From an uncultured Candidatus Peribacteria bacterium (GTDB lineage Bacteria > Patescibacteriota > Gracilibacteria > UBA1369 > LOWO2-01-FULL-3), in contig CAYZOB010000049.1 in assembly GCA_964480115.1 (NCBI GenBank), forward strand, positions 23,712-87,711: DNA of 64,000 nt, read 5' to 3'. The position numbers and the translations under genes were made by a program. The notes under the pieces were generated by a model. The model was not told the origin of the DNA. It saw only the letters and a program-made list of their open reading frames with translations, and did no database searches. Below are positions 4,430-35,154 of this stretch, in pieces (the first letter of the stretch is position 1; every line of letters begins with the position of its first letter).

Positions 4430-4545
4430 CAGAGCGCTTGCGCTCAATTACGACCGATGAAGTCGCATATCTTTCGGGTTTATTTATATCAGCCGAAAAA
4501 ATTGCTTGATCCGCCTGTTTGTCAGCCCTTCTTGACTTTTGCTTC

Positions 4546-4575: not shown

Positions 4576-4598
4576 AAAGCCTTGAAAATAATTTCCCC

Positions 4599-5174
4599 AT
4601 GAAACTTCCCGATCAGGATACCAATTACGTTATGACCACCTTTAAACCGGGTGAGCCGGATAAAAGGACAATAAAATTTTTAGGTCCACCGCAAGCCTCT
4701 ACAAGATTTTATGGGGGGGGATTAGGATTAGACGCAATGCGTTTCAAAGTAGGGGGGACTTCAACTGTCCGAGAGATAGGAGAATTTAATCAATGGCTTC
4801 CTGAGGGAAAGCGCGAAGCCGAACGGCAATTTCTTCTCTATTATTTTAGCGAGCTTATCGACGCTGTTTCTAAACTTGATGTTCAAAAGGCCTCTGCCAT
4901 ACGTGCCGAAGAGGCAAGATTTCAAACTTTTCTGCAAAAGTATGGCCACAAAGCACTCAAACGATATGAAAATGACCTTGCTGAAGTTGAGGATTTTACA
5001 GATGTCATCCTGAGCTTGGGAATGAATCCGGTCGATTTTGGTCTTGATGCTCCTCCAATTGCCAGTGATTTCCGTTTGATTGACGGTATTTGCAAAGGCG
5101 CCGGCCTTCGAATACATAAAGTGGTTGGTTCGAATAAATCGCTCTACGTTCAGGAGAGACCGTGTTCGTTTTAG
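4599..5174 (+). CDS. hypothetical protein (191 aa) containing a G8 homopolymer
   Basis: The ORF has a balanced, helix-rich composition. The antisense ORF 4761-5255 looks like a shadow frame. No family recognised. Confidence 0.55.
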   Translation: MKLPDQDTNYVMTTFKPGEPDKRTIKFLGPPQASTRFYGGGLGLDAMRFKVGGTSTVREIGEFNQWLPEGKREAERQFLLYYFSELIDAVSKLDVQKASAIRAEEARFQTFLQKYGHKALKRYENDLAEVEDFTDVILSLGMNPVDFGLDAPPIASDFRLIDGICKGAGLRIHKVVGSNKSLYVQERPCSF

Positions 5175-8316: not shown

Positions 8317-9510
8317 CTATTCATCCCCACTACACTGCCGATCCAAAATTCTCTTGGAAAGCTTCAAACTATCGTTTAGAGGAGAGAAACTATTATTTAT
8401 TATCTCGAGTAAGCCATCATCGGCAATTCCCACTTGACGACCATCCAGACTGTTCAGGAATAACTCCATGCTCTGATCGGAAGCCAAACGATATAGCCCA
8501 TCAAATTCTGCTTTTAATTTGGCCGTATCCTGCTCAAATTTATAAGTGTCGTTGGCATTTTTCTTCGTCGATAAGTAATCCCTTTGGGAGAGACCACCAC
8601 CGCCGCCACCTCCACCACCGCCGCTCAGCTGCTTTTCAATAAATTTATCCGCTTCATCCAGCGCATCCTTGGGAGCCAGATCATTTACATTCACCTGCAC
8701 AATCGAGGACATATAGTCCGCAAAACTTTCATCGGTGGTAAAAAGTTCCACCGTTTTTATCGTTTTCAATTCCGTCCAAATAGAAGGACCTTTTCCGGCA
8801 GCATTGGCCGCGATCCCTTTTCCGGCTTCTTTCAGCCCCGCACCTTCACTGAAAAATTTCATGAATTCCTGCCATTTTACACCCACGCCTTCCCATGAAC
8901 TTTTTTCACAATCTATATACTGGTTTTTGCGCTCAGCATACTTATTTTCAAGATGCAGAAATAATTGATCGAAATCTTCCTGATTCAAAAAACTCCCATT
9001 TACATAGCTATCCCTCATATCGCTATATAGAACATTCCTGTCGACCATCGCCGCCTCTTTCAATAGTGCAGTTTGTGCCGCCGCCGGCAGCATTTTTTTC
9101 GAGATGATTTTCACCACATGCCTCACATAATAAATTTCCATCAATAATTTAGAATAGGCCTTTCTTAATTGGGGCACATTCTCATTGTTACAGGTCAAAA
9201 AGGCATTTCTAATCGCACTGCGTATTTTATCTTCCTGTTTTATCAGCGAATAAATATCATTGCTATGACACTGGTTTCTTACCAGCACATCATTCCACGG
9301 CTCCAGCACTCCTTCCACAAAGCCATCATTGTATATCAAACTTTTTAAAAATATCCCGAAATCAATTTCTCCTTTTGCAAAACATCTGATCACGCTCAAA
9401 TTTCCATCTTCATTATACACATTTGTGCTTTCAGCTTTGCTCACATTACTCGCCACGCTATTCAGCAAGAGCGTTAGCAATATACCAATTATGATGCTGT
9501 TTTTTTTCAT
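8317..9510 (-). CDS. exported hypothetical protein (397 aa), last gene of the giant-protein operon
   Basis: N-terminal signal peptide (MKKNSIIIGILLTLLLNSVASNVSKA), a Gly9 run and a C-terminal ...DRQCSGDE. The start overlaps the upstream stop (TAATG). Confidence 0.8.
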   Translation of the reverse strand: MKKNSIIIGILLTLLLNSVASNVSKAESTNVYNEDGNLSVIRCFAKGEIDFGIFLKSLIYNDGFVEGVLEPWNDVLVRNQCHSNDIYSLIKQEDKIRSAIRNAFLTCNNENVPQLRKAYSKLLMEIYYVRHVVKIISKKMLPAAAQTALLKEAAMVDRNVLYSDMRDSYVNGSFLNQEDFDQLFLHLENKYAERKNQYIDCEKSSWEGVGVKWQEFMKFFSEGAGLKEAGKGIAANAAGKGPSIWTELKTIKTVELFTTDESFADYMSSIVQVNVNDLAPKDALDEADKFIEKQLSGGGGGGGGGGLSQRDYLSTKKNANDTYKFEQDTAKLKAEFDGLYRLASDQSMELFLNSLDGRQVGIADDGLLEIINNSFSPLNDSLKLSKRILDRQCSGDE

Positions 9511-11363
9511 TAGTTTATGTCTGGTTTATTAAGAATTTCATCCAGAGTACCTTTGTTTATTTTCTTAAAGGTATCTTCGAAATTTTTGAATAGAGCATTC
9601 ATTTGTTTTATTTCCTGCAGTATGCTACGGGAATATACCATTCGGTTTGCCAGCTCATTACCAATCTCGTCAGACTCCACCCTTACTCCAGCCTCTGTTC
9701 CGGCAACGGCTTTCACATTGCGAATTCTATCGGCCAAATCGGATTGTCTCAATTCTCCATTGGCAATTTTTTCCTGTAATTTTAGATTAAAATTCTCAGT
9801 CAAATCCTGTCTGTCAGCGCTGTCAAAATGTAATTTATCCAACAAAGCCGGCTTATAAGTCTCGGAAAATTTATTCCATTCTTCCAATATATTCCTACCA
9901 AAAATCAGCTTATCATTCGATGGAGTGGGGATAGGATTCCAGATGGTAATAAATTGGATGTTCAATAGTGGAACGGCCACCGCCTGTTTGCATTTTGCCG
10001 ACTCCATCTCATTGCCGGTAACTTTATTTGGTATCAAAGTATGATCCAAAGTCTTTTTCAGATATTCATTTATTTTTTCCACTTCACAGAGAATGCAGCT
10101 CTCGCCCTGCATATAACCAGATAGAACTTTTTTGATAATTTTAACATCAAAGCAAACACTGGCTTTCATGGAAACGCTCTCACTGGTGTAATTTGCCGCC
10201 GCTACGCCTCCACCATCAATGAAATTTTCAACGGCTCCTCCGAGACTGTCAAATCCCTGCTCACCTATGCCGGCAAACACTCCGGGCTCATCCACGCCGG
10301 AACACCATCGTTTTTCCCATTTATCAATGGGTGCCGGAGCGATAGGTAAAGCTGGAGCGATAGCAGCTGGAGCAGTGGCGGCAGCTGGAGCAGTGGCCGT
10401 TTTATCTCCATTGCCATCACCACCATTTTCATCCACACCACCCACACCACCCCCATCACCATTGCCACTTTTCTTATCTCCGCTCTTCTTATTGCCATTT
10501 TTCGCGGCATAATCATTCAAAGCACTGGTCAATGGATCATTTGGAGCACATATGTCCTCATCCAGAACTTCCGCCGCCACTTTTTGATCTCCTCCAATAT
10601 CAATCAAGCCCTTGATACCACCAGGAGCATCAGTTTTCCCGCCGCCATCAGCACTATTTTTCTCATCGCCCAAAGGCAGGAAAGCTACGCCAAACTGATT
10701 ATCATTTGGTACGTTGGAATTTAGCAGTAAAGTTTTTTCATCCAGTGTTGGCTTAAAAGGCGAAGTATAGGCATCTTGATATAACCCACCAATTGTCACC
10801 GGAGATTTTTTCAGAAAAAGCACATCTTCAATCAATGCAAGATCATACACAAGATCAAATCCAGAATCATTCAAGTCATTATTGGCAAACATCTCCGCGG
10901 GTTTGACCTGCGTATCCAACTCGTTTTGAATTTGATAAAGCTCACTTAAATCGGCAAAATTTCTTTGCACTTTACTCATAACTTTCGCCGCATCCTCCTG
11001 GGACATTGTCGGATGTTTGGAAGAATTCAAAATCGGGGTCAAGCTGCCATTTACCACCAGTCGCGCCTGATCCACTGTCATGCCATTATTATTTGCAACT
11101 TCTTGCAGCGCACTTTTGCCGGAATCACTGGTTATTTTTTTATAAATCAGATTATATAGATTTTTGCCCTTCTTTGTAGCATCCGTAGGGCTGAAAATAC
11201 TTTTCCAGTCAAATGAGTTATTATCAATCCAGGAAACTGTGGTATTCCACCAGCCGGTATCACTTTCACCATGCGCCACCTGGTTGTTATCCACATAAAT
11301 CAATCCCGTGGATGTACCCACTCCCAGCATTAAACCTATAATGATTGGTAAGAATTTTTTCAT
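9510..11363 (-). CDS. exported hypothetical protein (617 aa) with a G/A/P-rich linker
   Basis: Signal peptide MKKFLPIIIGLMLGVGTSTG. A central low-complexity stretch (GDGGGVGGVDENGGDGNGDKTATAPAAATAPAAIAPALPIAPAP) is followed by a Cys-containing C-terminal domain. Confidence 0.8.
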   Translation of the reverse strand: MKKFLPIIIGLMLGVGTSTGLIYVDNNQVAHGESDTGWWNTTVSWIDNNSFDWKSIFSPTDATKKGKNLYNLIYKKITSDSGKSALQEVANNNGMTVDQARLVVNGSLTPILNSSKHPTMSQEDAAKVMSKVQRNFADLSELYQIQNELDTQVKPAEMFANNDLNDSGFDLVYDLALIEDVLFLKKSPVTIGGLYQDAYTSPFKPTLDEKTLLLNSNVPNDNQFGVAFLPLGDEKNSADGGGKTDAPGGIKGLIDIGGDQKVAAEVLDEDICAPNDPLTSALNDYAAKNGNKKSGDKKSGNGDGGGVGGVDENGGDGNGDKTATAPAAATAPAAIAPALPIAPAPIDKWEKRWCSGVDEPGVFAGIGEQGFDSLGGAVENFIDGGGVAAANYTSESVSMKASVCFDVKIIKKVLSGYMQGESCILCEVEKINEYLKKTLDHTLIPNKVTGNEMESAKCKQAVAVPLLNIQFITIWNPIPTPSNDKLIFGRNILEEWNKFSETYKPALLDKLHFDSADRQDLTENFNLKLQEKIANGELRQSDLADRIRNVKAVAGTEAGVRVESDEIGNELANRMVYSRSILQEIKQMNALFKNFEDTFKKINKGTLDEILNKPDIN

Positions 11364-11364
11364 A

Positions 11365-12051
11365 TTATTGACACTGACTGGTAGATGCGTCTACAAAGCG
11401 CACCGGAAATTCGGCCGCACGCAAACGTATATCTTTCAAAACTGATTTGTATTTTGTTAGCTGGTATAAAATTTCCTGGTACTTTATATGCATCGGGTAG
11501 GCCAGACGAAATTCGTTATAAGCGGAAACAGTAGCCTCCATCACGGCTTTTGCCTCCTGAGATTCTTGAATTGTAAGCTGAGCCCTTTGTTTAAGTATAG
11601 CCGAAAGTTGGCTTGCTGAAGGCATTTGACTGAAGTTGAAATCGGGATTTTTTTGCAAATAATCCAGCCTTTTCAAATAATCAGAGTACCTGCTCAGTGC
11701 TTCGATTGATAAGCAATAGCTGCTCAAATTTTGCTCCCCGCATTTTTGCAGAATGGTAGGAATATCGTCTTGGTCCAGCAGATTGTAAGGCGGCAGAAAC
11801 AGCTTTTTCTTCTCGGCATTCTGATAAAAATCCGGCTCGCTCACGAGCTCAATCAATTTTTCTATTTTTGCGTTAAAAAGATCATTCATTTCACCGTGAT
11901 AGCCACTGAAAGCCGTCAAGTAACTGCCAGCTGTTCTGAAATCTATTCTCGTTTCACCTTCGGCATAGATGGTATAGCCTCCATAGACGAACATAACAGT
12001 CAGCACGGCTGTAAAAAAAGTAACGAAAATTTGTTTCAAAAGTCTCATCAT
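11365..12051 (-). CDS. signal-anchored hypothetical protein (about 228 aa)
   Basis: The ORF extends to 12066, but the ATG at 12049-12051 forms an ATGA overlap with the upstream stop and yields MMRLLKQIFVTFFTAVLTVMFVYGG. Helical body, C-terminal ...STSQCQ. Confidence 0.7.
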   Translation of the reverse strand: MMRLLKQIFVTFFTAVLTVMFVYGGYTIYAEGETRIDFRTAGSYLTAFSGYHGEMNDLFNAKIEKLIELVSEPDFYQNAEKKKLFLPPYNLLDQDDIPTILQKCGEQNLSSYCLSIEALSRYSDYLKRLDYLQKNPDFNFSQMPSASQLSAILKQRAQLTIQESQEAKAVMEATVSAYNEFRLAYPMHIKYQEILYQLTKYKSVLKDIRLRAAEFPVRFVDASTSQCQ

Positions 12052-12647
12052 CCTGAAGTTATGCATTGTTTTAGAAAGCCCGGAAAAACATTTTTAAAAG
12101 CTGAGAAATATCCAAACATCTGTGAAATCGTCATGTTTAAATCTCTAAGTTGATTGTTTATCGCCTGATATTTTTCCAGCATTATGGTCGCGGTTTTTGT
12201 AGCGTTGGTTTGCTTTATATGATCAAATAAAAGCTTTTTTCCTGCTGAGTAATATTCTTCCAGCAGCGCGGAACATAAGCCAAAAGCGGCATTCGTGGCG
12301 GCTATGTTTGCCTGTTCACTATCAAAATTCAACCTGTCAAAAAGATTCTCAATATTAACCTTGAATTCATTGTAACGGGCTATCGCCAGATTGGTGAGCG
12401 AACTCGTACTGCTCTTATTCTGAAAAGTTTGATTCAGGAAATCCAGAAATTCTTTCAGCTCAATATCCATCAGCGGAACCAGGGTACTTTGACATTCACT
12501 GGACGGCGTATTATTCAATTTTCTCATCAATTGAGCTTTAACTTTTTCTTGAGCGCCGGCCTCGCCGGCCTCTCCGGCTGCCACCGCGACCAATGAGTGC
12601 GTCAGCAATACGCATATAACCCCGATTACAATTAAACATTTTTTCAT
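12048..12647 (-). CDS. exported hypothetical protein (199 aa)
   Basis: Signal peptide MKKCLIVIGVICVLLTHSLVAVAAG, helical body, C-terminal ...FLKQCITSG. There is a 1-nt gap to the giant gene stop. Confidence 0.75.
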   Translation of the reverse strand: MKKCLIVIGVICVLLTHSLVAVAAGEAGEAGAQEKVKAQLMRKLNNTPSSECQSTLVPLMDIELKEFLDFLNQTFQNKSSTSSLTNLAIARYNEFKVNIENLFDRLNFDSEQANIAATNAAFGLCSALLEEYYSAGKKLLFDHIKQTNATKTATIMLEKYQAINNQLRDLNMTISQMFGYFSAFKNVFPGFLKQCITSG

Positions 12648-12648
12648 T

Positions 12649-15600
12649 TTACTTGGTTATTGTTTGAATTTGCACCTCGTTACCTTTGGTGAAGATATAA
12701 GTTTTATCATTCGGTTTTATTTCATAATACTGTGGATAATACTTGGCAACAACGGGGAAAAAGACGTCTCCCGGAATTAAATCAGCTTTGTGCGTAAAGG
12801 TGGAAATACATGGACAGGCATTACATTCCGCGGGTACCAAATACAATCCCGGAACGCTCTGATTTTTACAGCTGTTCAATTTATCGTCATCCTTTTGATT
12901 GAGAGGATCACCACAATCTTCGACTTCCTTGCCATCATTTTTGCTTCCACCATCGGTATCGGGATTATATGGATCGGTGTGGTAAATATTTGTTTCCTCA
13001 TAGTTCGAAAGTCCATCCTGATCCTCGTCTATTGCATCATCAACCGGATCCAGAGGGTTTGTATGCATTGCAATCTCTTTTCCATCCTTCACTCCTCCCT
13101 GGTCGCTATCGGCATCTAAAGGATTCAAATTGTTGGTACATTCCTGCGAATTACTAAGTCCATCCTGATCCGGATCGGCTTTGGCATCGGTTATCTTATA
13201 TTTTGCCGCGCAATAATCCGTCAAGCCATCATTATTTGTATCCTGCTCGAAACAGTTATAGATGTCGAGTACCCGTTGCACCATTACCAATAATTCTCCG
13301 AAATTCATTAATTTAGCCGGATTTTTAGCCTCTTCTTCCGTGATAACAAAGTTGTTTTTTATTGGCTTACCACTTTTCAAATATGGCGTCAGATTTCTGG
13401 CGGCTTGCAAATAATCACCATACCACGGATCACCTTCTTTCAAGGAACTCATGTCGATAATCCCACGATATTCTAAAGCTTTGAGAATAATTTTTATCGC
13501 TTCGGCTCTCGTGATATTATTTTCCGGCTTGAAAGGTGATAGCCCCGAGTCATTTTTTTCTCCCTTGTAGCCATCAATAAATTGCAATAGTGTAGCTTCT
13601 TTAATATCCGGATGATAGTCACCAAGCAGCGCATTATCCGTATATCCACTACCGGAGACAAACGCTTTGTACGCTTCTTCACGTGGAATTACACAAATCA
13701 TTTTCAGCAGAACTTTTACGAAATCTTTTCTCTTTACCAGATCCTCCTGGGTGAATTTAAAGCTTGGATCAATGACATAATTTGCCGCATCGGGTCCTTT
13801 TGAAATAGCCAGCGATCCATTCAGTACACCCGCCGAAGGTTTGCGCGGACTCATCTGCGGTACATCATTTGCACCGATGATAGTCGCCGGTTTCAAAAGC
13901 GCCACATAGATTTCTCCTACAGTTTTACCGGCAAAATTAACATTTATAATCAAAGGATCATTCGCGTGGTCATTTATTTTTTGCGCTATAGTTAGCCGCT
14001 TATCAAAAATTACAACATTGCCTGAGCTATCAACAGAGGCCAGAACTTTATTTTCCGCAACATTCTTTAGCACGGCTCCACCGGGATTATCCGCGTCATT
14101 GGCCGGTAATTTTTCAAAAATAAAATCATCACTTTTATCCAAATCATCGATATTCACTCCCTTCAAATCCCCCATGTTTTCAGCCACAAAGCCAAAGTTC
14201 TGGTAAATATTTACATCACTGTTAGCATCGGCAACCATATATATAGTACCCAGAACTTGATCATTTTTATCTTTAATTTCTAAATTTGTTGGTGTATTGG
14301 GCGGGATAGCCTCATTGATAACCGCTTTGTAGCCATCTTCTATCGCACCAATATTGCCGGTCTTCGGATTAATCTCCGCCACCACTTCACCGTCGGCATT
14401 TTCCACCAAAATCATATCATCGAGGATTAAATCCCTTATAAAATATCCTCCACCGGCTTCGGTAAAGGCCTCTTTCAGCTTATCAATTCTTGGCACCAGC
14501 TTCAGCTGCCCATTAATCACTCTGGAAATATAGCGACTGCGCATTAACCAGAAAGGCAGCTCTGGAGTCTTTGGCTCCGTAGTGCCGGTCGCCTCGCCGG
14601 TAGCGGCAAAAGATTCATCAAGAGAAATAGCCGGCGCTATAACGTGAATGGTAATTTCTATACTGGAGTTTTTGCCGGAAGCATCGACCACATGCAGTAG
14701 GAATTTATGATCTCCAATGTCTCCCTCATTTTCAAAAGGGCCAATGTTAAAGTGTGAATTGGTCTTATCATTAAATGGGAAGCCATCTCCATCTTCATCA
14801 ATCAAAACAGTCACGTCGCTGCCCAGAATTTTTGGCATTGGCGTAATCTTTAATTTATCGCCCGTATTCGGATCGCTCTGACTACTTTCATATGGCATTC
14901 TTTCCAGATAATACTGCTCTATTTTACCATCAGGATCAAAAGATCCGCCGGCATCGATTTCCAGATTTTGGAAAATGGAAATTGTATATTCGGTGGAATT
15001 TATCACCGGCATCGGCGACTCGTTATCCGCGCAGGATTGAGGAGCGGCGATGACTGTATCGGAAATCAGCGATTTTTCATCATTGGAATTCACGGCGAAA
15101 ACATTGACGTAATAATTGCCATTTGGGACATTCTCGGAAATTCTTGGTGAATTTTTATCACTCAAAGCACTGACGATTACCTTGAAATTATAGGCGGCAT
15201 TTTCTATGTCATCATAAATTGATTTTCGCAGCACAATTTCATAGCTTACCGCGCCTTCGACAGGCAACCAGCTAATATCAAATTTACCCGTGCTGATAGC
15301 CGGAACTGCCAGACCATCCACGGCAATACCTCCCTTGTTTACAAAATCTCCCACCGCATTATTCGTTAAGCCTATAATCAACTCGCCTTCCGGCAATTTG
15401 AGATTGTTGGCCGGATTATAATTAGTCTTCAAATAAATATCTCCACCGGTGGAATATACAATGTCATAATCCTGATCATGATCCACGTCGCTGAAGAGAA
15501 TATTGGTTTTACCTTTCAGTTCCTTGGTGTAATTGAGCACATTTTCACTAACAGTGCCGGCGCTTACATAGAATCCTATTGGTGGCGGAGTAGGTGCATT

Positions 15601-18600
15601 TGCATTGTCTACGATATCCTGCGGCGAGAAATTAATGGCGGCGGCGATCAAATCACGTTTGCCTGATAAATCAGCATTTTCAGCAGCCTGCTTGATGGCA
15701 CTCTCAACTTCTTTGCCAAGGAAACTAAAGGCTAAAGTTTTGCCGACCTCTCCCACATTACTTCCGGTCACATCATTTGCACTCGGGTTTGCGGCAATCA
15801 AATCGACTCGCTGTGAATTATTATCAACTAAAATTTTTCCGAATTCATTGTAATCGTCTATTTCTTTCAGAACTCCATCGGTAGCTTTCAAACCTTTGGT
15901 ATAAGCGATCATCTGATCTCTTAAGGCAGCCATTTGCAACAAACCCGAAGAATTCGGCAGATTTTCATATTTAATGGCATTTTCAATTTCCGCAAGACTT
16001 CGATTCAAAAGTGGATTACTTGAGTCGATAAACTTTTGCGTGGCAACAAGATTGTAAGTATCAGGCCCCTTGTTTTTTTCCAGCTCCGCGACATATTGAT
16101 TCATTTCCACCCGGATATTTTCCATCTGGAAATTTTCCATCTGGATATTTTCAAAGCTCAAAGGCTTATCCAATTTCTTCTGCACACCATTTTGAGCCTT
16201 ATCTATTAAAGTCTGAATATACTTATTGACAATTTGGCCATATGGCAGAGAAGTATACTTATTAATGTTTCCGATAAATCCGGCCACGCCGTCATTCCAA
16301 ATTTTCGCACCCTTGTCGGCAGCCACATAGATAAAATTAGTATCAATAGTGAAGTTCAATTTACCATTAATTCTAATCTGATCCACATAGCTGTACTCAA
16401 TGGGTGGGAACTGCACACCCAGATTTTTTACAATTGGCAGTACCACTTGAACATTTGGTTGAGTCATTGTTTCAATTTCTGTCTCAAGCAATGTTTCCGG
16501 AATAAACAATTGACCATTTTTCAATAAGCACAAGATTTTGAAAATAAATTTCAAATTAGTCATGAATTTACCCACGAAATTTGGTAATGCCGGAATCTTT
16601 GGTGGCTTCGGTAAATCCGGCAATTGCGGCAAAGGTATCTGGGGCAGATCTGGTAAATTCGGCAAACTGAAATCCGGAAATTTAGGTATATCAATCTGAA
16701 AATCAAGCTTTCCACCAGTAAGGGCATCCAAATCGAAATTCAAATCCACCGGCAATACATCGGGCAGATTTATATCCGGCAAATTCGGCAAAATTATTGG
16801 CTCCGGCCTGAAAACCACATCCGGCCATATTATCGTTACGCCGGTCTTTATTTGTGAAAAATCCACTACGACATCAGGCAACTTTGGCAGGGGAATAATT
16901 GGAATATCCGGAATCACGGCAAAGAGTTGCAGCAAAAGTCCGAGCTTGCTGAAGCGATCATTCTTACATTTATCACAGGACTGCTGATACTCCGTCACCG
17001 TATCCATGATTATCTTCCACTGTTTGAAAGTGCGAATGGTATCGCGAATAGCTTTGGTCCATGATTCAACAATCTTTTGCTGACGGTTAATATAGCCGCC
17101 GGTATACTGCATTATCGCATCCAGATAACAAATAATCTGCGTCGCATATTTAGCCTCCACATTTCTCCAATGCAAAATATCTTTTGGTAAATTGGCTATT
17201 TTATCCAGGGCATCCATAAATTTTCTCACCGAATTAATCAATGTCTGCATGTCCACCGTAATCGCATCACAAAAAGTCTGGCGATTTTCATTTTTCTCAC
17301 AATCCCAAAGCTTATATTTCTGTAATTCACTTTCCATATGCTTAATCCAGGCATCAGCTTGATACTTGTATTTGGCTATTTCTTTTGGCGAAATGGCCGG
17401 AATTTTAATGATTATTTCTTTACCTTCCAGTTTTACAAATGGAAAATTACTTAGGCTGGTGGCAAAATCATTGAACCCTCTGAAGCTGAATTGTTGTGCT
17501 GCCAATTTGCTTTCCTGACCCACCCTGGAAAAATCCGGCAATACGAAATAGAAAGTGGGGAAGCGTAATAATTTTGTATATATTTCATCAATTTCACCAT
17601 CCAGCCAATTGGTGACCACGCTTGGGAATCCCGGCACTTTAACATTTACTTTTGAAGTTGCAGAAATCGGATCACGGGCATTGCCCCAGCTACCGCCGGT
17701 ATCCACGCCTTTAGCGCCACCTGCACCCTGACCGTCTATGATTGCAGCCGATTGACCGGTTTCCACATTCACCACTGCTTTACTCGCAGCTGAAATCACC
17801 CCATGAACAGCCTGCTTTACCGCCGCACACACTCCGGGTATTCCACCGGGAACTGAAAAGGCAAAACATCCGCCGACACCGTTTGGTCCTGCGCACGCTG
17901 CACCACCCAATCCTAAAGTTGTTGTGGGAGAGATGTAAAATCTGAAAAACGAATTTGTACCAATGGAAGGTGCAAATGGTAGAACATATGGAGGATAAGG
18001 CACGATACTCACCGCCGGCAATCCAGGAATAGCCCCATCCTGAGCCAATAAAGCATAATTATAGGGAATTGGCAGACAACCGCCTCCCGAGCAGCGCAAG
18101 TTTGATAAGGTATTTTCTATTCCTGTAGCTAAAGCCTCACCACTGCTTTGCGCGGTTATCAAAATATCACTCCATTTATCCGCACAGCCGTTATAGTCTT
18201 TATCTTGATTTTGGCTGGCGGCAAACTTTTTGAGCATGGCAGCCATCTCCGGTGATACCTCCCCTTTGGCACTTGCTGCGATTATCTCGCTTGGAGACGG
18301 CAACCCCAATTTTGCAAAAGTATCATCCACGGCATTGCTGGAATTATCCGCCGGAGTCGTCTCGAATTTCTCATATTTCTCTGATTCTACGGAATAAAGA
18401 TAAGTAATTATTCCATCAGGATTCACTTCCGGCCTGATCATAATATCGCCATAAAGATCGTTGTTAGATGGATCATCCTTATTCGCCGTATATTGGACGA
18501 AATTATTGCCAAGCTCGAAATGAATTTTCGGCACCAGATTCACAATCATTTTATAGCTGATAATTCTTTGTCCGCCAGCCGGCACGCTGATATTTTTAAT

Positions 18601-27109: not shown

Positions 27110-27808
27110 TCATTTCAGGCTTTCCAAACGTGCTTTTAGTAAAAATATCGTATCCGTTCGCAATTTAGCTCTTGCCCAATCCTTTTGCGGTTCGCTAAGC
27201 AGTTCACCCAGACCGTTAAGAATATTTCTGTTACTCATTTTTGCAAGTTGATCCAGGCATTTCTCCAGCAGTTTTTTCATAGACAGTTCGGCTCGCTGCT
27301 TGATAAGATCGGCATTAATTGGCCAATCTTTGTCAAGAAAAAACCACAAATCATAAATATCACGACTTGTTTTTCCAATCCGTTCATTCATTGCCATCAA
27401 CTTGTTTGCAAACATATCCTCCTGAACCATGACCAGCATCGAAACACCAAGATGATTTTTAAGTACATAATTAGAGGTAGACCCATGTTGATTTATCTCA
27501 ATCTTGATCTGTTTTTTTCCGCTCCCATATGAGAGCACGCACAAGAGATTAAACCGCTTATCCGCAATGTCTTTTATTGTTCCATATTCTTTTGCAATTT
27601 GCTCTATTCTTTTGAAAACAACATCTTTTTTTTCAGGATTAAGCAGGTCAAAATCCAGATCGACCGAAAAACGACTCAGATTATAGAATATCATGGCTGC
27701 CGTACCTCCTTTAAAGCCCAAGAAAGGGGCAATCGAAACATCAGAATAGATATCCTTCAGGATACGGAACATTTTATTTTTATGTATCGCGGTATCAAAA
27801 GCCTCCAT
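27110..27808 (-). CDS. abiEii: AbiEii/AbiGii-family nucleotidyltransferase toxin (type IV TA)
   Basis: FKGGTAAMIFYNLSRFSVDLDFDL matches the characteristic GGTAL...RFSxDLDF nucleotidyltransferase motif. Size is 232 aa. It sits 3 nt downstream of the AbiEi-like gene. Confidence 0.8.
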   Translation of the reverse strand: MEAFDTAIHKNKMFRILKDIYSDVSIAPFLGFKGGTAAMIFYNLSRFSVDLDFDLLNPEKKDVVFKRIEQIAKEYGTIKDIADKRFNLLCVLSYGSGKKQIKIEINQHGSTSNYVLKNHLGVSMLVMVQEDMFANKLMAMNERIGKTSRDIYDLWFFLDKDWPINADLIKQRAELSMKKLLEKCLDQLAKMSNRNILNGLGELLSEPQKDWARAKLRTDTIFLLKARLESLK

Positions 27809-27811
27809 GTG

Positions 27812-28423
27812 TTATGCGTTATTTTTTTGATATTCAGAAAGCAATTTCACCCTTTTTTCCATGCGCTTCTTATCATATATCGGCAAAATTTCAAACACCT
27901 TATCCCAATTCAGTGAGTTTAAATTGTCAAAATGATATTCTTTATTGATATAAATTGTGTCTAGAAATGCACGTTCCGGAGTAGCGACAGACGTTTGATC
28001 TTTAAATTCAATACCTGCATTATTTGTTAAAATTGAATCCTTCATTTTTTTGTAAGCATAAATTTGTTCACCTATTACCAATTCCCTGGTCTGATACGAA
28101 GCTAAAAATATTTGGCTGTAAAATTGAAAATTAATACCCGCTTCTATCAGCACGGTTTCAAAACTTATATATGATGGAGTCAAAATTCTGGTTGAAAGCT
28201 CTTGTTTATTATAATTTTTGTCCTTGGCATAAATCCCTCTGCGAATACGATATAGTTCACCAATTTTTACATAATAATTAATTTTACTCACTACTGATTT
28301 CTTATTATCCGAACCCCAGATGAGGCAAACATCTTTAAAAGTAAAAACCGTCTTGTCTGATCTTAGTAACTTGGAAATTGGCTTTCCTGTTTCATTCATA
28401 AGCTGAACATTAGAATAATTCAA
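27812..28423 (-). CDS. abiEi: AbiEi-family antitoxin / transcriptional regulator
   Basis: The size, its position directly upstream of abiEii, and the AbiEi_4-like segment (KIGELYRIRRGIYA) support the call. The ORF-track start at 28423 is TTG; an in-frame ATG lies at 28399. Confidence 0.65.
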   Translation of the reverse strand: MNYSNVQLMNETGKPISKLLRSDKTVFTFKDVCLIWGSDNKKSVVSKINYYVKIGELYRIRRGIYAKDKNYNKQELSTRILTPSYISFETVLIEAGINFQFYSQIFLASYQTRELVIGEQIYAYKKMKDSILTNNAGIEFKDQTSVATPERAFLDTIYINKEYHFDNLNSLNWDKVFEILPIYDKKRMEKRVKLLSEYQKNNA

Positions 28424-28530
28424 ACCTTTAGCTCACTATATGCGATTTGCACTGAATATGCAAGCAGCAGTCTTTTCATACCATGCAGGACTTAGACTAA
28501 TAATACCCATTTATGGCCATTAATGGTTCA

Positions 28531-28573
28531 AATTATTTTATATTCACAATTGACCGTCGACGGTCAATTGAAT
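28531..28573 (-). promoter_or_regulatory. 43-bp repeat copy 1: 24-bp perfect palindrome plus promoter-like hexamers, upstream of abiEi
   Basis: aattattttatattcacaattgaccgtcgacggtcaattgaat. The palindrome CAATTGACCGTCGACGGTCAATTG spans 28547-28570. On the minus strand, TTGACC in the palindrome is followed about 19 nt later by TATAAA. Confidence 0.6.
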
Positions 28574-28663
28574 CACTTCAATCTCTTCAGAGCCGGACGT
28601 CCTAAAATTGACCTCATCTGATCAATAGCTATTTGATTCATTAGCAGGATTATCAGCTTTCTC

Positions 28664-29665: not shown

Positions 29666-29762
29666 TGCAATCTGTATAGCAGACAAATCTAAAATTTTCT
29701 TAAAATAAATCTAAAATTTTTCTAAAATTCTTAAAACCCAGGCTCTCCTGCATGAAAACATG

Positions 29763-29975: not shown

Positions 29976-30521
29976 TTACTGCACGTTAACAAGCAAGCAA
30001 TAAGCTGGCCCATCAGCAGCAGGAACAGCTCCTGGAGTCAGGGCGGGAACCGCAGATGCTTTGACATTCTTACACCCTATATTCGCATTATCTATACTTT
30101 CAACAGCTGCAAACACTGCCGCCGTAAATTTCAGTCCTGCCGCGTATTTAACATATCCATATTGACCTGTACATGAGGGGTTGCTGCCTGTTGTCACATT
30201 AGCTGTCTTTGGATCTACCGGAAAAGTTCCACCAAAATCAGAAACGTTTGTACTAATTAAATTGCCAATAGTACCAGCTGCACCAGTAGAATCAATACAC
30301 GTAATCGTACTCACACCTCCGGGCAAACTAACTCCTGTCAATGATTTATTTAACAAAAATCCGGTAATCTTATTTACTTGAGCCACCCTTTGCGTATCCC
30401 TGGCTTTCTGAGGCGCACCAAGCAGGCTTGGCAAGAACGCCACGGCCAATACCGCGATAATAGCGATTACAATTAATAACTCGATCAGGGTGAAACCCTT
30501 TTTAGCATTCAGACTTTTCAT
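29976..30521 (-). CDS. type IV pilin (prepilin with N-terminal methylation motif)
   Basis: MKSLNAKKGFTLIELLIVIAIIAVLAVAF is a classic G/FTLIEL class III signal with a hydrophobic alpha1 helix. The globular part has four Cys. The ORF extension to 30713 has no support. Confidence 0.9.
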   Translation of the reverse strand: MKSLNAKKGFTLIELLIVIAIIAVLAVAFLPSLLGAPQKARDTQRVAQVNKITGFLLNKSLTGVSLPGGVSTITCIDSTGAAGTIGNLISTNVSDFGGTFPVDPKTANVTTGSNPSCTGQYGYVKYAAGLKFTAAVFAAVESIDNANIGCKNVKASAVPALTPGAVPAADGPAYCLLVNVQ

Positions 30522-30755
30522 AGAAAAAAATTTAAGGAAATTACTATCGACAATATTACCCCTGATCAAAAAAAAGACAAGCGATTTTAGAAATTTGTAC
30601 CACATCCTGCCATGGCTTGACACTGATATTTTGCTTCCAGATTGCCGATTTTTCCACCGGCGCCAAAAGAGTTTTTTGCAAAGGTAATGCTGAGGCATCA
30701 TGAACACGTCCAAATTTCACATTCAATGGCAAATTTGGACGCATCACAACACCAC

Positions 30756-32009
30756 CTACAAGTTCGAACTCAAACTCGTCAGCTTCATGATCGGCAGCAT
30801 CACGGCCGCCACCACCGTGCCTACGGTCATACCGATCACGATCAGGATAATAGGTTCAATAATCTTGGAAATTCCGGATACCGCCGTGTCCACTTCATCC
30901 TCGTAAAACTTGGCCACCTTCGCTGTAATCTCGTCCAGTTGCGCCGTTTTTTCACCCACATCGATCATATTCACCAGCATCGGTGGAAAAAGATCACTGC
31001 CACTCAGGTTTTCCGCCAGGGGAATACCCTGCTTGATGTCCTCAGAGGAGGATAAAAGTCTCTTTTTATAGACCTCGTTGCCGATTGAATTCGCCGTAAT
31101 TTCCAGCGTCCTTACTATCGACACATTACTATCCAATAAATTACTTAACGATCTTGCAAATCTGGCCAGATAAGCTTCTTTAAACAAATTACCGAATACC
31201 GGTAGTCTCAATTTCAAATTATCCAAAGCGTATTTTCCCATTTCGGTCTTTTTGAAAAATGAAAAGAAAATGAAAATTGCCACCACGCCCAATAAAAGCA
31301 AAAATCCATGATTGATCATAAAATTACTGATTCCCACTACGATCTTAGTCACCAAAGGTAAATCTCCTTTCGCCGCCGCAAATAATTCCGTCAACTTTGG
31401 AATTACGAAAATCATCAGGCCGCTCACTACCAAAATCAGCAAAACAAAAATTACCACCGGATACATCAGCGCGCTTTTTACCTTCGCAGTAATGGCATAA
31501 GCTTTCTCGGCATCCAGAGCCAGATTTTCCAATACTCTGCTCAGCTGTCCGGAAGCTTCGCCGGATTCCACCATGCCGATTTCCGGCTCCGTAAAAACTT
31601 TTTTGTAATCAGACATGGACACCGATAAGCTACTGCCGGACTCGATTTTTTTGGCCAAATCCACCACGACCATCTTCAGGCGCGGACTGTTTTCCATCTG
31701 CTGTGCCAGAGATTTTAGCGACATTACCATCGGAATTCCCGAATTGATCATCACCGATAAAAGATGCAAAAAAGTCGCTTTATCCTTCACTTTTACTCCC
31801 GATTGAGAGAGAAAGTAATTATTGACCTTCTTGTACCAATTCACGAGCATATTTCCGCTCACCACCCTCTCATCCAGACCGCTTTTATCCAGAATCACCG
31901 CCGCCTTTTCTTCCTGAATATTGAGCACGACATGTTCATTGGACAATTTCTGTCCATCGAGCTGAAAGGCCTCGGTCCCCATTGTGGCAAAATCTTTTTC
32001 GTTTGGCAT
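30756..32009 (-). CDS. pilC: type IV pilus platform protein PilC (GspF family)
   Basis: Two GspF-type repeats with three TM segments, about 400 aa, adjacent to the GspE-family ATPase. Confidence 0.85.
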   Translation of the reverse strand: MPNEKDFATMGTEAFQLDGQKLSNEHVVLNIQEEKAAVILDKSGLDERVVSGNMLVNWYKKVNNYFLSQSGVKVKDKATFLHLLSVMINSGIPMVMSLKSLAQQMENSPRLKMVVVDLAKKIESGSSLSVSMSDYKKVFTEPEIGMVESGEASGQLSRVLENLALDAEKAYAITAKVKSALMYPVVIFVLLILVVSGLMIFVIPKLTELFAAAKGDLPLVTKIVVGISNFMINHGFLLLLGVVAIFIFFSFFKKTEMGKYALDNLKLRLPVFGNLFKEAYLARFARSLSNLLDSNVSIVRTLEITANSIGNEVYKKRLLSSSEDIKQGIPLAENLSGSDLFPPMLVNMIDVGEKTAQLDEITAKVAKFYEDEVDTAVSGISKIIEPIILIVIGMTVGTVVAAVMLPIMKLTSLSSNL

Positions 32010-32029
32010 ATTGATTTAAAACAATTTTT

Positions 32030-33271
32030 TTAAGATTTACGCGCTACACGGTATACCTCATCCAGAGTGGTAACGCCCTGTAAAGCTTTGATAATTCCGG
32101 CTTGCTCCAGCGTCACCATGCCATTTTTCAAAGCGGCTTCTTCAATATCCAGCATGCTGGCGCTGCTGCCGACTAATTTCCTTAATTCATTATTCATCCG
32201 AAATACTTCGTACAAGCCCACGCGACCGAGATATCCCACATTGCCACATTCCACGCAGCCTACGGCTTGATAGAATTGCATTCCTGTCAATAAAGCCGGA
32301 TCTATTTCTCCCTCGGTATGCAGCCTGGACATTGCTCTCTTCACCAATTCCAAAAGTTCCGGTGAAGTTTCTACCTGTTTTTTACATTTTTCACATACTT
32401 TTCTCACCAACCTCTGAGCGATGATTAGTTCAAGCGTGGAATTTAATAAATAAGGCTCAATGCCCATGTTTATCAGACGGGTGATCGATTCCACGGCACT
32501 ATTCGTATGCAGAGTGGAGAAAACCAGATGTCCCGTAAGTGAAGCCTCAATAGCGGTATTGGCCGTTTCTTTGTCACGAATTTCTCCCACCATTATGATG
32601 TTTGGATCCTGACGTAGCGCCGTCCTCATGCCGGAAGCAAAATCATAATTAATGTCGTGATGAACCTGGCTTTGATTCAGTCCGTCCAGCTGGATTTCCA
32701 CCGGATCCTCAATTGTAAGAATATTTACATCCATCGTATTTAATCTGGTCAGGCAGGAATACAGTGTAGTCGTCTTACCTGAACCTGTCGGACCGGTATT
32801 GATGAGAATTCCATTTGGAGATTTCATCGCCGCTTCCAGATTTCTCAAGGAAGCGCCGGAAATTCCCAATTCCATCAAATCCGGAATTTTTCTGGATTTA
32901 TCCTGAATACGCATAACAATCTTTTCCCCATTTACCGTAGGCAATGTGGAGACACGCAGATCCATCCCGCGACCATCCTTCGTCGTCACATCCGCTCTAC
33001 CGTCTTGTGGTAATCTTTGTTCATCAATCTTTAAATTCGACATGATTTTCAATCTCGAAACCACCGCCGGATGCAGATTTGTGGGATATTCAACGATTTT
33101 TCGCAAAACACCATCCACGCGATAACGGATTCTCACATAGTGCTGCAAGGGTTCAATATGAATATCACTTGAACGCAGATCCAAAGCATAGCTGATAGCG
33201 ACGAGTACCATTTGCGGAATATTCGCGGCCAGAATGCTGTCCTCCAGTTGTTTTTGTTTTTCTTCGTTCAT
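32030..33271 (-). CDS. pilB: type IV pilus assembly ATPase (GspE/PilB family)
   Basis: Walker A GPTGSGKTT, Asp box and His box. The tetracysteine motif (CEKCKK ... CVECGNVGY) is typical of PilB/GspE rather than PilT. The N-terminal region is short. Confidence 0.85.
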   Translation of the reverse strand: MNEEKQKQLEDSILAANIPQMVLVAISYALDLRSSDIHIEPLQHYVRIRYRVDGVLRKIVEYPTNLHPAVVSRLKIMSNLKIDEQRLPQDGRADVTTKDGRGMDLRVSTLPTVNGEKIVMRIQDKSRKIPDLMELGISGASLRNLEAAMKSPNGILINTGPTGSGKTTTLYSCLTRLNTMDVNILTIEDPVEIQLDGLNQSQVHHDINYDFASGMRTALRQDPNIIMVGEIRDKETANTAIEASLTGHLVFSTLHTNSAVESITRLINMGIEPYLLNSTLELIIAQRLVRKVCEKCKKQVETSPELLELVKRAMSRLHTEGEIDPALLTGMQFYQAVGCVECGNVGYLGRVGLYEVFRMNNELRKLVGSSASMLDIEEAALKNGMVTLEQAGIIKALQGVTTLDEVYRVARKS

Positions 33272-33889
33272 TTATTTTTGAAAATAAGCGTTTATCTGCA
33301 CCGAGAAACTGATGATGTCTGAAGCACCCTCCCCATCACTGTTATTCTGAAAATTTAATCTTACCGAAGACATATCCATCAGGCGCACATTGTCTTTCAG
33401 GCTTCCGGAACTCTCCACCATGTGCATGAATTTAGTGAAATTTTCTTTGGAACTGCGAATACTCATTCTCAAAGGTAAAATTGCATATGTTTCAGCCTGA
33501 ATTGGCGTCTGGTAGTCAATATTGGCGATTTCAAAAGGATTGCTTTTTGTGGAAAGCTGTACTTCGTAAGCATCAATTTGTCTTGTAAGATTAGTGTAGT
33601 CATCCGTTGCCGGAAAAATTACTTTAAGTTTTTGCTCAACTTCTTTATTTAATTGGTTGGCGGCGAGTTTCTTATCCTCAAGTTCGATTTTTTCTTTGCT
33701 CACATCTCTGCGCAAATCAGCAATAAAGGCTTTGTTCTGAGCCACACCCTGAATAGCCATCCGGTATTGATTCCATTTGTTAAATATGTAAAAACCCGCA
33801 GACAAAAGCAAAATAAGACATAGCACCGCATAGATACGCACATGCAATTTCTGTAATCTTTCCTCTTCCTGATAATTGTGATCTGCCAT
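33272..33889 (-). CDS. PilO-like bitopic pilus-alignment protein (putative)
   Basis: The architecture is a short cytoplasmic N-terminus, one TM, a coiled coil and then an alpha/beta C-domain. It abuts pilB with a 0-nt gap. Confidence 0.45.
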   Translation of the reverse strand: MADHNYQEEERLQKLHVRIYAVLCLILLLSAGFYIFNKWNQYRMAIQGVAQNKAFIADLRRDVSKEKIELEDKKLAANQLNKEVEQKLKVIFPATDDYTNLTRQIDAYEVQLSTKSNPFEIANIDYQTPIQAETYAILPLRMSIRSSKENFTKFMHMVESSGSLKDNVRLMDMSSVRLNFQNNSDGEGASDIISFSVQINAYFQK

Positions 33890-33891
33890 TT

Positions 33892-35154
33892 TTATGGTGT
33901 TTTAGGTAAGTTCGGATTATTTTTGAGATCCAAAGCCAGGCGCAAAGTGGCCAAATAACCTTCTTCAATCGAACCGGATTTACTGAAGGAGCGCATTTCT
34001 CCATTGGCAAATACCTTCGATTGATTTAGTTCCTCTATGAGATTGGCAATCATCGTAAAATTGGTAGGATCCAGACTCTTCGTTTCCCCCGCTATCGAAA
34101 TTTTCCCGGTGGAGCTGTCGAAGTCATAACTGTTGTATCTGATTCCACCAACGGAATTATAAAAATTTTCATTGAAATTCTTATCTACCGCTGCTGTCCT
34201 CAAATCAATTTCTTTGATCACATCCGACCATTTTATCCTTTTAGCTTTAATCGCCTGCATTGCTGTAGCGTCATTCACGGTCAGCGCATTGATTTTATTG
34301 ATTGATTTGTACAAATCTTCATCTTTCAAAGCATCAAAGTCCGTTTGAATCAGTAAATTTTTCAATTCCGCATTATTTATCAGCTTTAAAGTCTGCTGAT
34401 AATTCCGCAAATCCCTTTTTGTTGATTCCGCGGTGCCTTTTGATAAATTTTGTAATTTATCATTAATCAGAGCTCTCAATTTTTCCTCATAGAGTGTCTG
34501 TAATTGAGAATCCGTGGCGAAATTTTTATCAACCAGAAAAGTCGTAAAATTCTTTGAAATTTTATCTCTGGCAGCCAGAAAAGGCTCTTTTAAACCGCTT
34601 CTTATCTCAACCATAGCTTCCACCGCATTCCGCTTTTCCTCATCTGGAATAGTGGTACTGATTGAATTTTCATATTCCCTGATAAATTGATCACTGTCGT
34701 AGCTGAATTTATCCAGAGCAATTTTGATTTCCTGGATAAGTTCGAAATTCAAATCTGTCTGTAGCGCAATAATTTCAGCATTGGTAGAGGCCAGATCGGC
34801 CGAAACATTCGGTAGCTTGAATTTAGCGGTAATAAAGTCGAATTTATTTGTAAATTGTGAGGTGAAAAAGGCCAGAGCCAGGAGACTCACACAAATTAGA
34901 GCTCCAAAAAGTATCTTGAGTACTACCAAGCGAATACTTTTAGCCGGTCCCATGGCTTCCAGCAGGGACATGTCTAATTCCGGCGCTTCACCAAGAATAG
35001 CCTTTTCTTTTTCACCGGTTTCCAGCGCAACGATGTTTTTTAACAGATCAGATCCCATCGGCCTGGCAGCCATTGGATCCATTGCCGTCGCCGGGGCGGA
35101 GTTACGCAGGGAGTCTGCGGCCGGATTACTTATTGGCATAGCTTGATCAGACAT
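33892..35154 (-). CDS. bitopic membrane protein, possible PilN/PilM-substitute of the pilus operon
   Basis: About 85-aa cytoplasmic N-terminus, TM (IRLVVLKILFGALICVSLLALAFF) and a long helical ectodomain. It is the first gene of the pilus operon. No actin-like PilM motifs were seen. Confidence 0.35.
   Translation of the reverse strand: MSDQAMPISNPAADSLRNSAPATAMDPMAARPMGSDLLKNIVALETGEKEKAILGEAPELDMSLLEAMGPAKSIRLVVLKILFGALICVSLLALAFFTSQFTNKFDFITAKFKLPNVSADLASTNAEIIALQTDLNFELIQEIKIALDKFSYDSDQFIREYENSISTTIPDEEKRNAVEAMVEIRSGLKEPFLAARDKISKNFTTFLVDKNFATDSQLQTLYEEKLRALINDKLQNLSKGTAESTKRDLRNYQQTLKLINNAELKNLLIQTDFDALKDEDLYKSINKINALTVNDATAMQAIKAKRIKWSDVIKEIDLRTAAVDKNFNENFYNSVGGIRYNSYDFDSSTGKISIAGETKSLDPTNFTMIANLIEELNQSKVFANGEMRSFSKSGSIEEGYLATLRLALDLKNNPNLPKTP

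Follow-up and report, generated by a model that had tools for sequence, protein, structure and literature searches.

A giant, putatively wall-anchored surface protein conserved beside type IV pilus genes in Peribacteria and related lineages

The giant proteins of Vampirococcus that carry DUF11, integrin and fibronectin domains have been taken for fibres that attach to hosts (PMC8080830); an attachment role has also been given to large extracellular proteins of Peribacteria (PMC4736985) and to the VCBS-repeat proteins detected in Gracilibacteria proteomes (PMC11452946). The Peregrinibacteria are enriched in huge, uncharacterised proteins (PMC11573180), and giant proteins of predatory bacteria have been linked to the digestion of prey cell walls (West-Roberts et al., bioRxiv 10.1101/2023.11.21.568195). 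Here, we analysed a 64,000-nucleotide stretch of DNA from an uncultured Candidatus Peribacteria bacterium (assembly GCA_964480115.1, contig CAYZOB010000049.1, positions 23,712 to 87,711; hereafter the window), in which a single gene encodes a protein of 4,784 residues. We propose that this giant protein is probably a Sec-exported surface protein whose only hold on the cell wall is its C-terminal part, and that it belongs to a cell-contact or attachment structure together with the type IV pilus and four partner proteins encoded beside it. A giant SLH-anchored, adhesin-like surface protein is of a kind already known, and as far as the evidence goes the protein is not a new principle of biology; what is new is that two thirds of its sequence are orphan, that it is conserved across a whole bacterial class and that it is linked in gene order to a pilus. 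We found no published description of the family, of its central module or of the gene cassette.

A whole-length search returned 65 full-length relatives (3000-6000 aa), whose source records all name Candidatus Peregrinibacteria, Peribacteria, Gracilibacteria or the 'Patescibacteria group', and whose database names are only 'VCBS repeat-containing', 'FG-GAP-like repeat-containing', 'DUF11 domain-containing' or hypothetical. When aligned with MAFFT, these relatives were collinear over the full length of the query, with an occupancy mostly >0.8 outside the linkers. Recognised module types make up roughly 30% of the residues and linkers about 6%, and the remainder, about two thirds of the protein, is conserved orphan sequence. 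An initial annotation, made by eye from the sequence, had drawn a domain map of the protein. Every motif that it quoted was found where it had been placed, and most of its labels held: in Pfam scans, the immunoglobulin (Ig)-like, FG-GAP, DUF11, SLH and TSP3 assignments were all backed by family-level statistics. Two labels ('C25-like' and 'FN3-like') found no solid support, about 60% of the protein had been left unlabelled, and the conserved orphan modules, among them the central one, were missing from the map.

The probable attachment of the protein to the wall can be read from its C-terminal part. The segment first labelled SLH-like (13430-13760) lies in a triple SLH domain: Pfam SLH (PF00395) matched 62/66 relatives at E<=0.01 (best 5.3e-16), and positions 15-194 of the family profile aligned with residues 8-171 of P. 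alvei SpaA (6cwc, E=1.7e-5), thus covering all three repeats. Across these repeats the family consensus reads RAE / RAE / TRxE, with R4425, E4501 and E4558 invariant; the corresponding query motifs are VKRKDF, ITRAEA and MNFGEL, that of repeat 2 (ITRAEA) being intact. The genome also encodes a CsaB-type pyruvyl transferase (PF04230, 148.9 bits, G000:C2:14786-15673) and holds 38 SLH repeats in about 18 proteins, i.e. about 17 besides the giant protein, so that SLH anchoring is plainly used by this organism. The calcium repeats proposed at 12900-13250 were likewise recovered, TSP3_bac (PF18884) matching 44/66 relatives (best 2.9e-34) and scoring 24.7 bits on the query segment (cut-off 25), with D-x-[DN]-x-DG loops (DxDxDGLS) at aa 4588, 4610 and 4659. 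The small domain that ends the protein has the invariant residues G4719, C4727, C4730, P4731, C4732 and D4746 (66 sequences); it gave no Pfam or PDB match and has no other copy in the genome. As a separate observation, the window contains a further SLH protein, encoded by a 450-aa open reading frame (ORF) on the minus strand (41240-42592, SLH repeats at about 42182-42490, G000:C49:65893-66201), which is adjoined by a second 450-aa ORF (42643-43995).

Upstream of this anchor, several module types characteristic of extracellular stalks were found. The invasin-type Ig-like repeats of the initial map (about 20690-22000) scored above cut-off when the segment was searched alone (Invasin_D3, 43.3 bits against 33; GH2_C5, 35.3 bits against 32); both families matched 50/50 relatives and Big_1 matched 40/50 (PF02369, PF09134), and the profile matched Ig-like domains in solved structures, both those of GH2 enzymes and those in chain 4e9l ('attaching and effacing protein'), with E down to 7.5e-10. 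The three FG-GAP/VCBS loops proposed at 19215-19590 were also confirmed: FG-GAP_3 (PF13517) reached 43.5 bits (cut-off 26.9) and FG-GAP (PF01839) 39.7 bits (cut-off 22.1), the two families matched 59/59 and 58/59 relatives, and the integrin alpha-6 propeller was matched at E=3.5e-10. The loops (DxNxDG) lie at aa 2477, 2527 and 2582 (nt 19243-19575), and only three propeller blades are recognisable. Just ahead of them, the motif GDNKHMLLFAAGNSVG(D/E)S and its neighbours are nearly invariant within aa 2106-2469, a region with no Pfam or PDB match that may belong to the propeller as degenerate blades or form a domain of its own. DUF11, which had been read at 18620-18810, matched 45/59 relatives at the same position (best 1.7e-8), the query itself falling just below cut-off (TIGR01451, 20.7 against 24 bits; PF01345, 18.9 against 24.6 bits). 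Nearer the wall, the PKD-like reading (about 14890-14990, around SFDPDGKI at about aa 4022) fared less evenly: the family profile aligned with the PKD domain of ColH (4u6t, E=0.0043) as two collinear pieces with an acidic insert between them, but the Pfam families PKD and PKD_4 (PF00801 / PF18911) matched only 1/71 relatives each. The FN3-like module suggested at 15060-15330 is weakly supported: Pfam fn3 (PF00041) gave no match on the query segment and matched 5/71 relatives at E<0.01 (best 0.003). No consistent Pfam family was found in aa 4121-4404 (FecR in 4/71 relatives).

Linkers and a further orphan region separate these modules from the N-terminal head. The acidic/Gly linkers noted initially (about 23090-23160 and 22430-22800) agree with the composition of the protein (38 Gly, 19 Ala and 15 Ser among the 131 residues of aa 1400-1530), and the linkers have the lowest alignment occupancy (0.45-0.57) and identity (0.08-0.20) of the whole protein, with a short conserved stretch sitting between them. 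Region B, on their N-terminal side, has as invariant residues (45 sequences) C762, C774, C836, a W, a K-H and a Y; it has no sequence relative in PDB and no Pfam family in the query or in the precomputed lists of 66 relatives. In 21/50 relatives the stretch aligned with aa 1600-2450, into which the last linker extends, bears TSP3 repeats that are absent from this part of the query (best E 1.8e-26); if these repeats lie at the start of the stretch, the Gly/Ala/Ser/Asn linkers of the query could be a degenerated or replaced calcium-repeat array.

These modules suggest the following arrangement. The protein would be exported by Sec and its signal peptide removed; by what is known of the families, its SLH trimer would then bind, non-covalently, a pyruvylated secondary cell-wall polymer made with the CsaB-type enzyme of the genome. 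The TSP3 repeats and the small Cys-motif end domain would form a calcium-stiffened base, and the PKD-, FN3-, DUF11-, FG-GAP- and Ig-type modules, together with the flexible linkers and the large family-specific modules, would form a long stalk projecting the alpha/beta, helical and PDZ-like head away from the cell. That such a fibre would serve in cell contact is suggested by the domain types, by the synteny described below and by the published readings of related giant surface proteins.

Several observations weigh against this proposal. The SLH score of the query itself is below the Pfam cut-off (17.1 against 20.8 bits), and the TRAE motifs of two of its three repeats (1 and 3) are degenerate. 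About two thirds of the protein, including the central module, has no family or fold match, and an activity other than adhesion could reside there; in the head, a polar cluster (D192, E219, D243, K244, N245, H246, D266 and R296) also fits an enzyme. Finally, a gene that is highly conserved, present in one copy and fixed in its synteny would more typically encode a machine part than an adhesin for particular hosts, and the main rival explanation, that of a pilus part, fits this degree of conservation and the constant gene order no less well than a classical adhesin does.

According to this rival, the giant protein would be a structural part of the pilus apparatus, a wall- and S-layer-spanning scaffold or collar that guides or holds the type IV pilus across the thick envelope together with the four partners, the central module being its oligomerising core. 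We consider this rather unlikely. The four partner proteins have N-terminal signal or anchor segments and no Pfam family match, and their genes follow the giant gene in the same order in nearly every related locus with downstream room. Synteny was checked in three distant relatives with flanks (29-36% identity). Two of these (34% and 36%) showed the succession miaA, L10/L12, pilus assembly genes, PilB, PilC, 1-4 pilins, giant gene, four partners, a helix-turn-helix (HTH) gene and UvrA; the contig of the third (29%) starts at the giant gene and retains the four partners, the HTH gene and UvrA downstream. The window has the same gene order except for an islet between the pilin gene and the giant gene (27110-29686), which consists of an AbiE toxin-antitoxin pair and a YhcG/DUF1016 nuclease. 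This islet looks like an insertion into an otherwise fixed order, because in the distant relatives a pilin (or NUDIX) gene directly precedes the giant gene. That the giant gene keeps its place between the pilin genes and its four conserved partners even in distant lineages is what a pilus part would lead one to expect, as is class-wide conservation in single copy that is strongest in the central module, whose predicted long helices could bundle; the PDZ-fold matches of the head include the type II secretion proteins EpsC and PulC, and the giant genes of Omnitrophota are likewise preceded by loci resembling type II secretion systems (T2SS) or pili (bioRxiv 10.1101/2023.11.21.568195). Nevertheless, synteny does not amount to interaction, the defence islet that parts the pilus genes from the giant gene here means that co-transcription is not needed, and arrays of Ig, FG-GAP, DUF11 and PKD modules with flexible linkers typify extended fibres, not compact collars.

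The head could also be an active enzyme, either a clan-CD-like peptidase or another hydrolase, which a long tether would hold out so that it can attack the envelopes of hosts or prey. The initial annotation had pointed in this direction, comparing the order of the motifs VVLVGDIPLPV / FPYTDF / PEIWHGVI (aa 165-225, within about 26200-26850) with the caspase-fold C25 peptidases while seeing no obvious catalytic His or Cys. We modelled aa 40-700 with AlphaFold 2 (AF2; mean predicted local distance difference test (pLDDT) 85.2) and aligned 95 N-terminal sequences from genome and metagenome loci. In the model, strands and helices alternate at first; a subdomain of helices and a part rich in beta structure come next, and a small domain lies at the C-terminal side. 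G165, G170, P175, P189, D192, F193, K244, D266, Y282 and R296 are invariant in the 95 sequences, and E219, D243, N245 and H246 are at least 90% conserved (H246, within the helix motif FDKNH, at about 90%). No Cys of the alpha/beta domain is conserved among them and there is no invariant Cys or His and no Cys/His pair, which agrees with the initial impression; Cys494 of the beta-rich subdomain is invariant only in a 23-sequence set, and the His of PEIWHG is replaced by Gly in several relatives. On the alpha/beta part, Pfam gave no match in the query (E<=1) or in 23 relatives (E<=0.1), a profile search of PDB sequences gave none, and Foldseek of the head model against PDB gave none at E<=0.001, all E-values being >0.05. 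The best caspase-fold match was caspase-6 (6ppm, E=0.078, prob 0.75, template modelling (TM) score 0.40 on the target), with caspase-8 and the caspase-like domain of Raptor also among the weak matches, and flavodoxin-like and arginase-like sandwiches scored alike. A genome-wide search with PF01364 also gave no match but carries no weight, as control genomes gave none either. Membership in C25 or another peptidase family was therefore rejected, on the lack of a Pfam match and of a catalytic pair and on the non-significant Foldseek result: the model describes a confident alpha/beta domain that is vaguely caspase-like in its order and is not a C25 member.

The domain that follows was labelled PDZ-like in the initial annotation (25085-25200), and this label finds some support at the level of the predicted fold, though it does not reach the Pfam cut-off. 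PDZ, PDZ_2 and PDZ_6 were all sub-threshold in the query (E 0.005-0.02; 17.7, 15.9 and 14.9 bits for PF00595, PF13180 and PF17820, against cut-offs of 23.2, 27 and 27) and matched 11, 12 and 15 of the 23 relatives at E<=0.1, with a best relative E of 4.6e-4. The segment, which includes LQKGDVIVKVNGQDI at aa 603-617, has as leading PDB profile matches only PDZ domains of HtrA, DegQ or site-2 proteases (E 0.014-0.9). Foldseek likewise returned PDZ domains, with TM scores on the target of 0.46-0.56 and E of 0.07-0.5, among them HtrA (7l71, prob 0.94, TM 0.50), EpsC (2i6v, prob 0.87, TM 0.56) and PulC (prob 0.47). These values are consistent with a PDZ-like fold for aa about 546-700 but sub-threshold, and they do not prove it. 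The dense conserved polar residues of the head would be compatible with a role in catalysis or in ligand binding. For an enzyme speak the confident alpha/beta sandwich with caspase-6, caspase-8 and Raptor among its weak matches, the conserved charges (D192, K244, D266 and R296 invariant), a PDZ-like domain next in line as in HtrA-type proteases, and the tie between giant proteins and prey cell-wall digestion drawn by West-Roberts et al. (bioRxiv 10.1101/2023.11.21.568195). With no Pfam peptidase family in the query or 23 relatives, no conserved Cys in the alpha/beta domain, a PEIWHG His that is Gly in several relatives, no Foldseek E-value below 0.05 and a domain confined to the giant-protein family (a search with the head alone, covering proteins of 256-814 residues, returned contig-end fragments of this family but no stand-alone relative), we find an enzymatic head improbable.

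The best-conserved part of the family is the central module (identity up to 0.66). It combines a beta part rich in Cys, Gly and Pro with long helical hairpins (aa 3206-3344), a hydrophobic helix, a proline tract with the motif LPxLPD and a tail of helices, and it contains ten conserved Cys, eight of them invariant and two at least 90% conserved (75 sequences). An AF2 model of moderate confidence (pLDDT 67.9) predicts a compact beta part, three long helices over aa 3206-3344, a short hydrophobic helix, an unstructured LPxLPD tract and more helices, the longest helices reaching 73 residues. The module has no PDB sequence match beyond coiled-coil noise, and Foldseek found no similar fold in PDB (best E=3.1) or among the predicted viral structures of BFVD (best E=0.5). 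Kinship with viral fusion proteins was considered and rejected: the matches to haemagglutinin HA2 and spike HR1 (E 0.004-0.3) reflect the composition of long helices, and neither PDB nor the viral models gave Foldseek support. The module was found in 216/301 sampled genomes of the class and in 0 of about 283 sampled Patescibacteria outside it. A long shot, in our view, is that the five-gene cassette and the adjacent pilus genes encode an undescribed cell-contact organelle of the Peregrinibacteria-Gracilibacteria-Absconditabacteria class. Its working part would then be the central module (disulfide-rich hydrophobic beta part, 70-residue helical hairpins and LPxLPD tract) and not the adhesin-type domains, and the module might oligomerise or insert into the envelope of a partner, opening an uptake route from hosts.

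Three observations concern variation within the class. In several families (genomes G243, G238, G196, G041 and others), the stretches that match the central module carry 1-14 TGA codons in frame, which fits orthologues in Gracilibacteria or Absconditabacteria with recoded TGA (code 25). Three families mostly lack the module (f13, 1/42; f22, 0/11; f25, 0/8). In a subgroup of relatives (loci L006, L007, L009, L016, L024 and others) the giant proteins are about 800-900 residues shorter (3880-4130 aa) and the central module begins about 2500 residues from the N-terminus, against 3230; part of the N-terminal half thus appears dispensable.

Anchoring by the C-terminal part only, as we propose, further depends on the fate of the N-terminus. 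The initial annotation had seen a signal or transmembrane segment there (26900-26970) and had concluded, with SLH at the other end, that both ends are tethered or that the protein is processed. Only two windows are strongly hydrophobic, namely aa 5-39 (Kyte-Doolittle peak 1.95) and a short segment at aa 3351-3373 that is broken by proline. The relatives have a basic start, a hydrophobic core of 15-20 residues and then P-V-A-x-A at the same alignment column, where the query reads M-P-S-V-S-A. A small-x-small motif after a hydrophobic segment is the usual signature of cleavage by signal peptidase I, and the segment is probably a cleavable Sec signal peptide, whose removal would leave a single anchor at the C-terminal wall-binding domain. 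Monoderm bacteria are well known to anchor large passengers by C-terminal SLH domains, so that tethering at both ends calls for no special processing. The double tether is probably a non-problem, for which removal of a signal peptide at an AxA site is the simplest answer. The opposite case, an uncleaved signal anchor with the protein looping through the envelope, membrane-held at its N-terminus and wall-held at its C-terminus, could draw on the length of the hydrophobic stretch, on its interruption by Asn-Glu in the query and on a first small-x-small site (SVSA) that is less canonical than in relatives. It is made very unlikely by the classic P-V-A-x-A directly after the core in relatives, by aa 40-67, which are variable and predicted to be disordered as expected for a mature N-terminus, and by the many enzymes and scaffoldins of cell surfaces that carry SLH domains at the C-terminus and are anchored there only. 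A second membrane span at aa 3351-3373 was also rejected: its hydrophobic core is only about 12 residues long and is followed by a D/P-rich stretch, the candidate partner helix (aa 3476-3496) has four Lys and a mean hydropathy of about 1.0 (hand sum), and such a span would put the SLH domain in the cytoplasm; the AF2 model was also considered here.

That the giant ORF is a chimeric assembly artefact, which the initial annotation had named as an alternative, is ruled out: beyond the metagenome-type source assembly (1.44 Mb in 77 contigs, rated 100% complete) we found nothing in its favour, whereas the 65 independent full-length relatives come from many studies and share an identical module order from end to end, frames of similar length hold the central module in 179 species-level genomes and base composition is uniform along the gene, which is real.

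Table 1. Features of the giant protein and of its gene neighbourhood (nucleotide positions in the window; residue numbers follow aa = (27003 - nt)/3 + 1).
Feature	Position (nt)	Strand	Residues (aa)	Remarks
Giant gene	12649-27003	-		Single open frame, 4784 codons, 14.4 kb; 4,784-residue product
Sec-type signal peptide	26896..27003	-	1-36	Basic n-region and hydrophobic core; probable cleavage after SVSA
N-terminal alpha/beta domain	26212..26802	-	68-264	Family-specific 'head'; AF2 pLDDT 90-96
Helical and beta-rich subdomains	25369..26211	-	265-430 (helical), 431-545 (beta-rich)	AF2, pLDDT mostly 76-90; no known family
PDZ-like domain	24904..25368	-	about 546-700	With insertions
Conserved orphan region B	23164..24903	-	701-1280	Three invariant Cys and one DNDGD calcium-type loop
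Low-complexity linkers	22039..23181	-	1275-1310, 1400-1530, 1530-1655	Acidic/Gly; Gly/Ala/Ser/Asp/Asn; Lys/Glu-rich, respectively
About four Ig-like domains	20689..22026	-	1660-2105	Big_1 / invasin D3 / GH2_C5-type
Conserved orphan region before the propeller blades	19597..20688	-	2106-2469	Identity 0.28-0.54, occupancy >=0.87
FG-GAP/VCBS blades	19168..19596	-	2470-2612	Three DxNxDG calcium loops
DUF11-type beta-sandwich	18484..18831	-	about 2725-2840	Query match aa 2736-2777
Central orphan module	15424..18246	-	2920-3860	940 residues
FN3-like beta module	15034..15330	-	3892-3990	Weakly supported; otherwise a by-eye pattern
PKD-like domain	14644..15006	-	4000-4120	Split by an acidic insert with a DEDGDG loop
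Conserved orphan region	13792..14643	-	4121-4404	Identity about 0.40-0.44, occupancy >=0.93
Triple SLH wall-binding domain	13234..13791	-	4405-4590	Query SLH match aa 4491-4503
Bacterial TSP3-type calcium-binding repeats	12874..13233	-	4591-4710	
C-terminal 74-residue domain	12652..12873	-	4711-4784	Invariant C-N-x-C-P-C; absent from the initial annotation
Four exported-protein genes	8317..12647	-		Co-directional, tightly packed; 199, 233, 617 and 397 aa; same cassette as the giant gene
Type IV pilus genes upstream of the giant gene	29976..35154	-		Pilin, PilC, PilB, PilO-like and 420-aa protein; Pfam N_methyl, T2SSF, T2SSE, PilO

With genomes of about 1-1.5 Mb, Peregrinibacteria and related bacteria spend about 1% of their sequence on the giant gene. 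Across the class this gene has been kept along with its four partners and its place next to the pilus genes, which would make it a core part of how these uncultured and probably host-dependent cells meet others. The domain map separates the ordinary parts of the protein (wall anchor, calcium repeats and Ig/FG-GAP stalk) from the orphan ones (head, region B and central module), and the latter are clear targets for structure work, binding assays and tomography.

Compared with known systems, the protein resembles, in its anchor, the SLH-anchored surface proteins of monoderms (P. alvei SpaA, 6cwc, as well as enzymes and scaffoldins). It shares with them three tandem SLH repeats that align with the whole SpaA domain, a genome with a CsaB-type pyruvyl transferase and many SLH proteins, and a passenger that would be displayed outside the wall. 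It differs in the size of this passenger, about 4400 residues that are mostly of no known family, in the TSP3 repeats and Cys-motif end domain placed after SLH, and in the degenerate TRAE motifs of repeats 1 and 3. At the other end of the protein, the head shares with Peptidase C25 (gingipain-type, clan CD) an alpha/beta sandwich and the order of short motifs (a strand ending in GD, I-P, aromatic-D and PE-x-W-x-G), but it has no Pfam C25 match and no His/Cys pair, and the likeness in fold is non-significant (E=0.078, TM 0.40).

With regard to module types, the giant proteins of Absconditabacteria (Vampirococcus lugosii, 1392-4163 aa, with DUF11, integrin and fibronectin domains; PMC8080830) belong to the same bacterial class, carry FG-GAP/VCBS and DUF11 modules and are read as attachment fibres; the VCBS-repeat proteins of Gracilibacteria (PMC11452946) likewise share the class, the module types and the attachment reading. 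Some of these published giants may be true orthologues of the protein described here, because the central module occurs in TGA-recoded lineages of the class. The corresponding papers differ from the present analysis in that they neither map the domains nor describe the central module, and they analyse no cassette or synteny. The giant repetitive adhesins (type I-secreted RTX proteins such as LapA, SiiE and MpIBP, and the intimin/invasin family) are similar in length, in their Big_1/invasin Ig arrays and calcium repeats and in the logic of head, stalk and anchor. In contrast to RTX adhesins, the giant protein uses a Sec signal peptide and not a C-terminal RTX secretion signal, and no RTX family was among the Pfam matches of the query at E<=1. 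It also has few true tandem repeats, most of its mass being unique conserved modules, and its anchor is an SLH domain in the wall and not an outer-membrane plug or beta-barrel.

In genomic setting, there is a likeness with the giant genes of Omnitrophota (bioRxiv 10.1101/2023.11.21.568195), where a very long surface protein is also encoded directly after genes for a GspE/GspF-type ATPase and platform and for pilins, and where a role in cell contact has been proposed; however, these belong to an unrelated diderm phylum, are much larger and have other domains, and no sequence relationship was seen. Pilus adhesins of the PilY1/PilC type are also encoded with pilin genes and also combine a calcium-binding beta-propeller element with an N-terminal alpha/beta domain. 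The giant protein is four times larger than these, combines a Sec signal of its own with an SLH domain for wall anchoring and gives no Pfam PilY1/PilC match; nothing was seen that would place it on the pilus tip.

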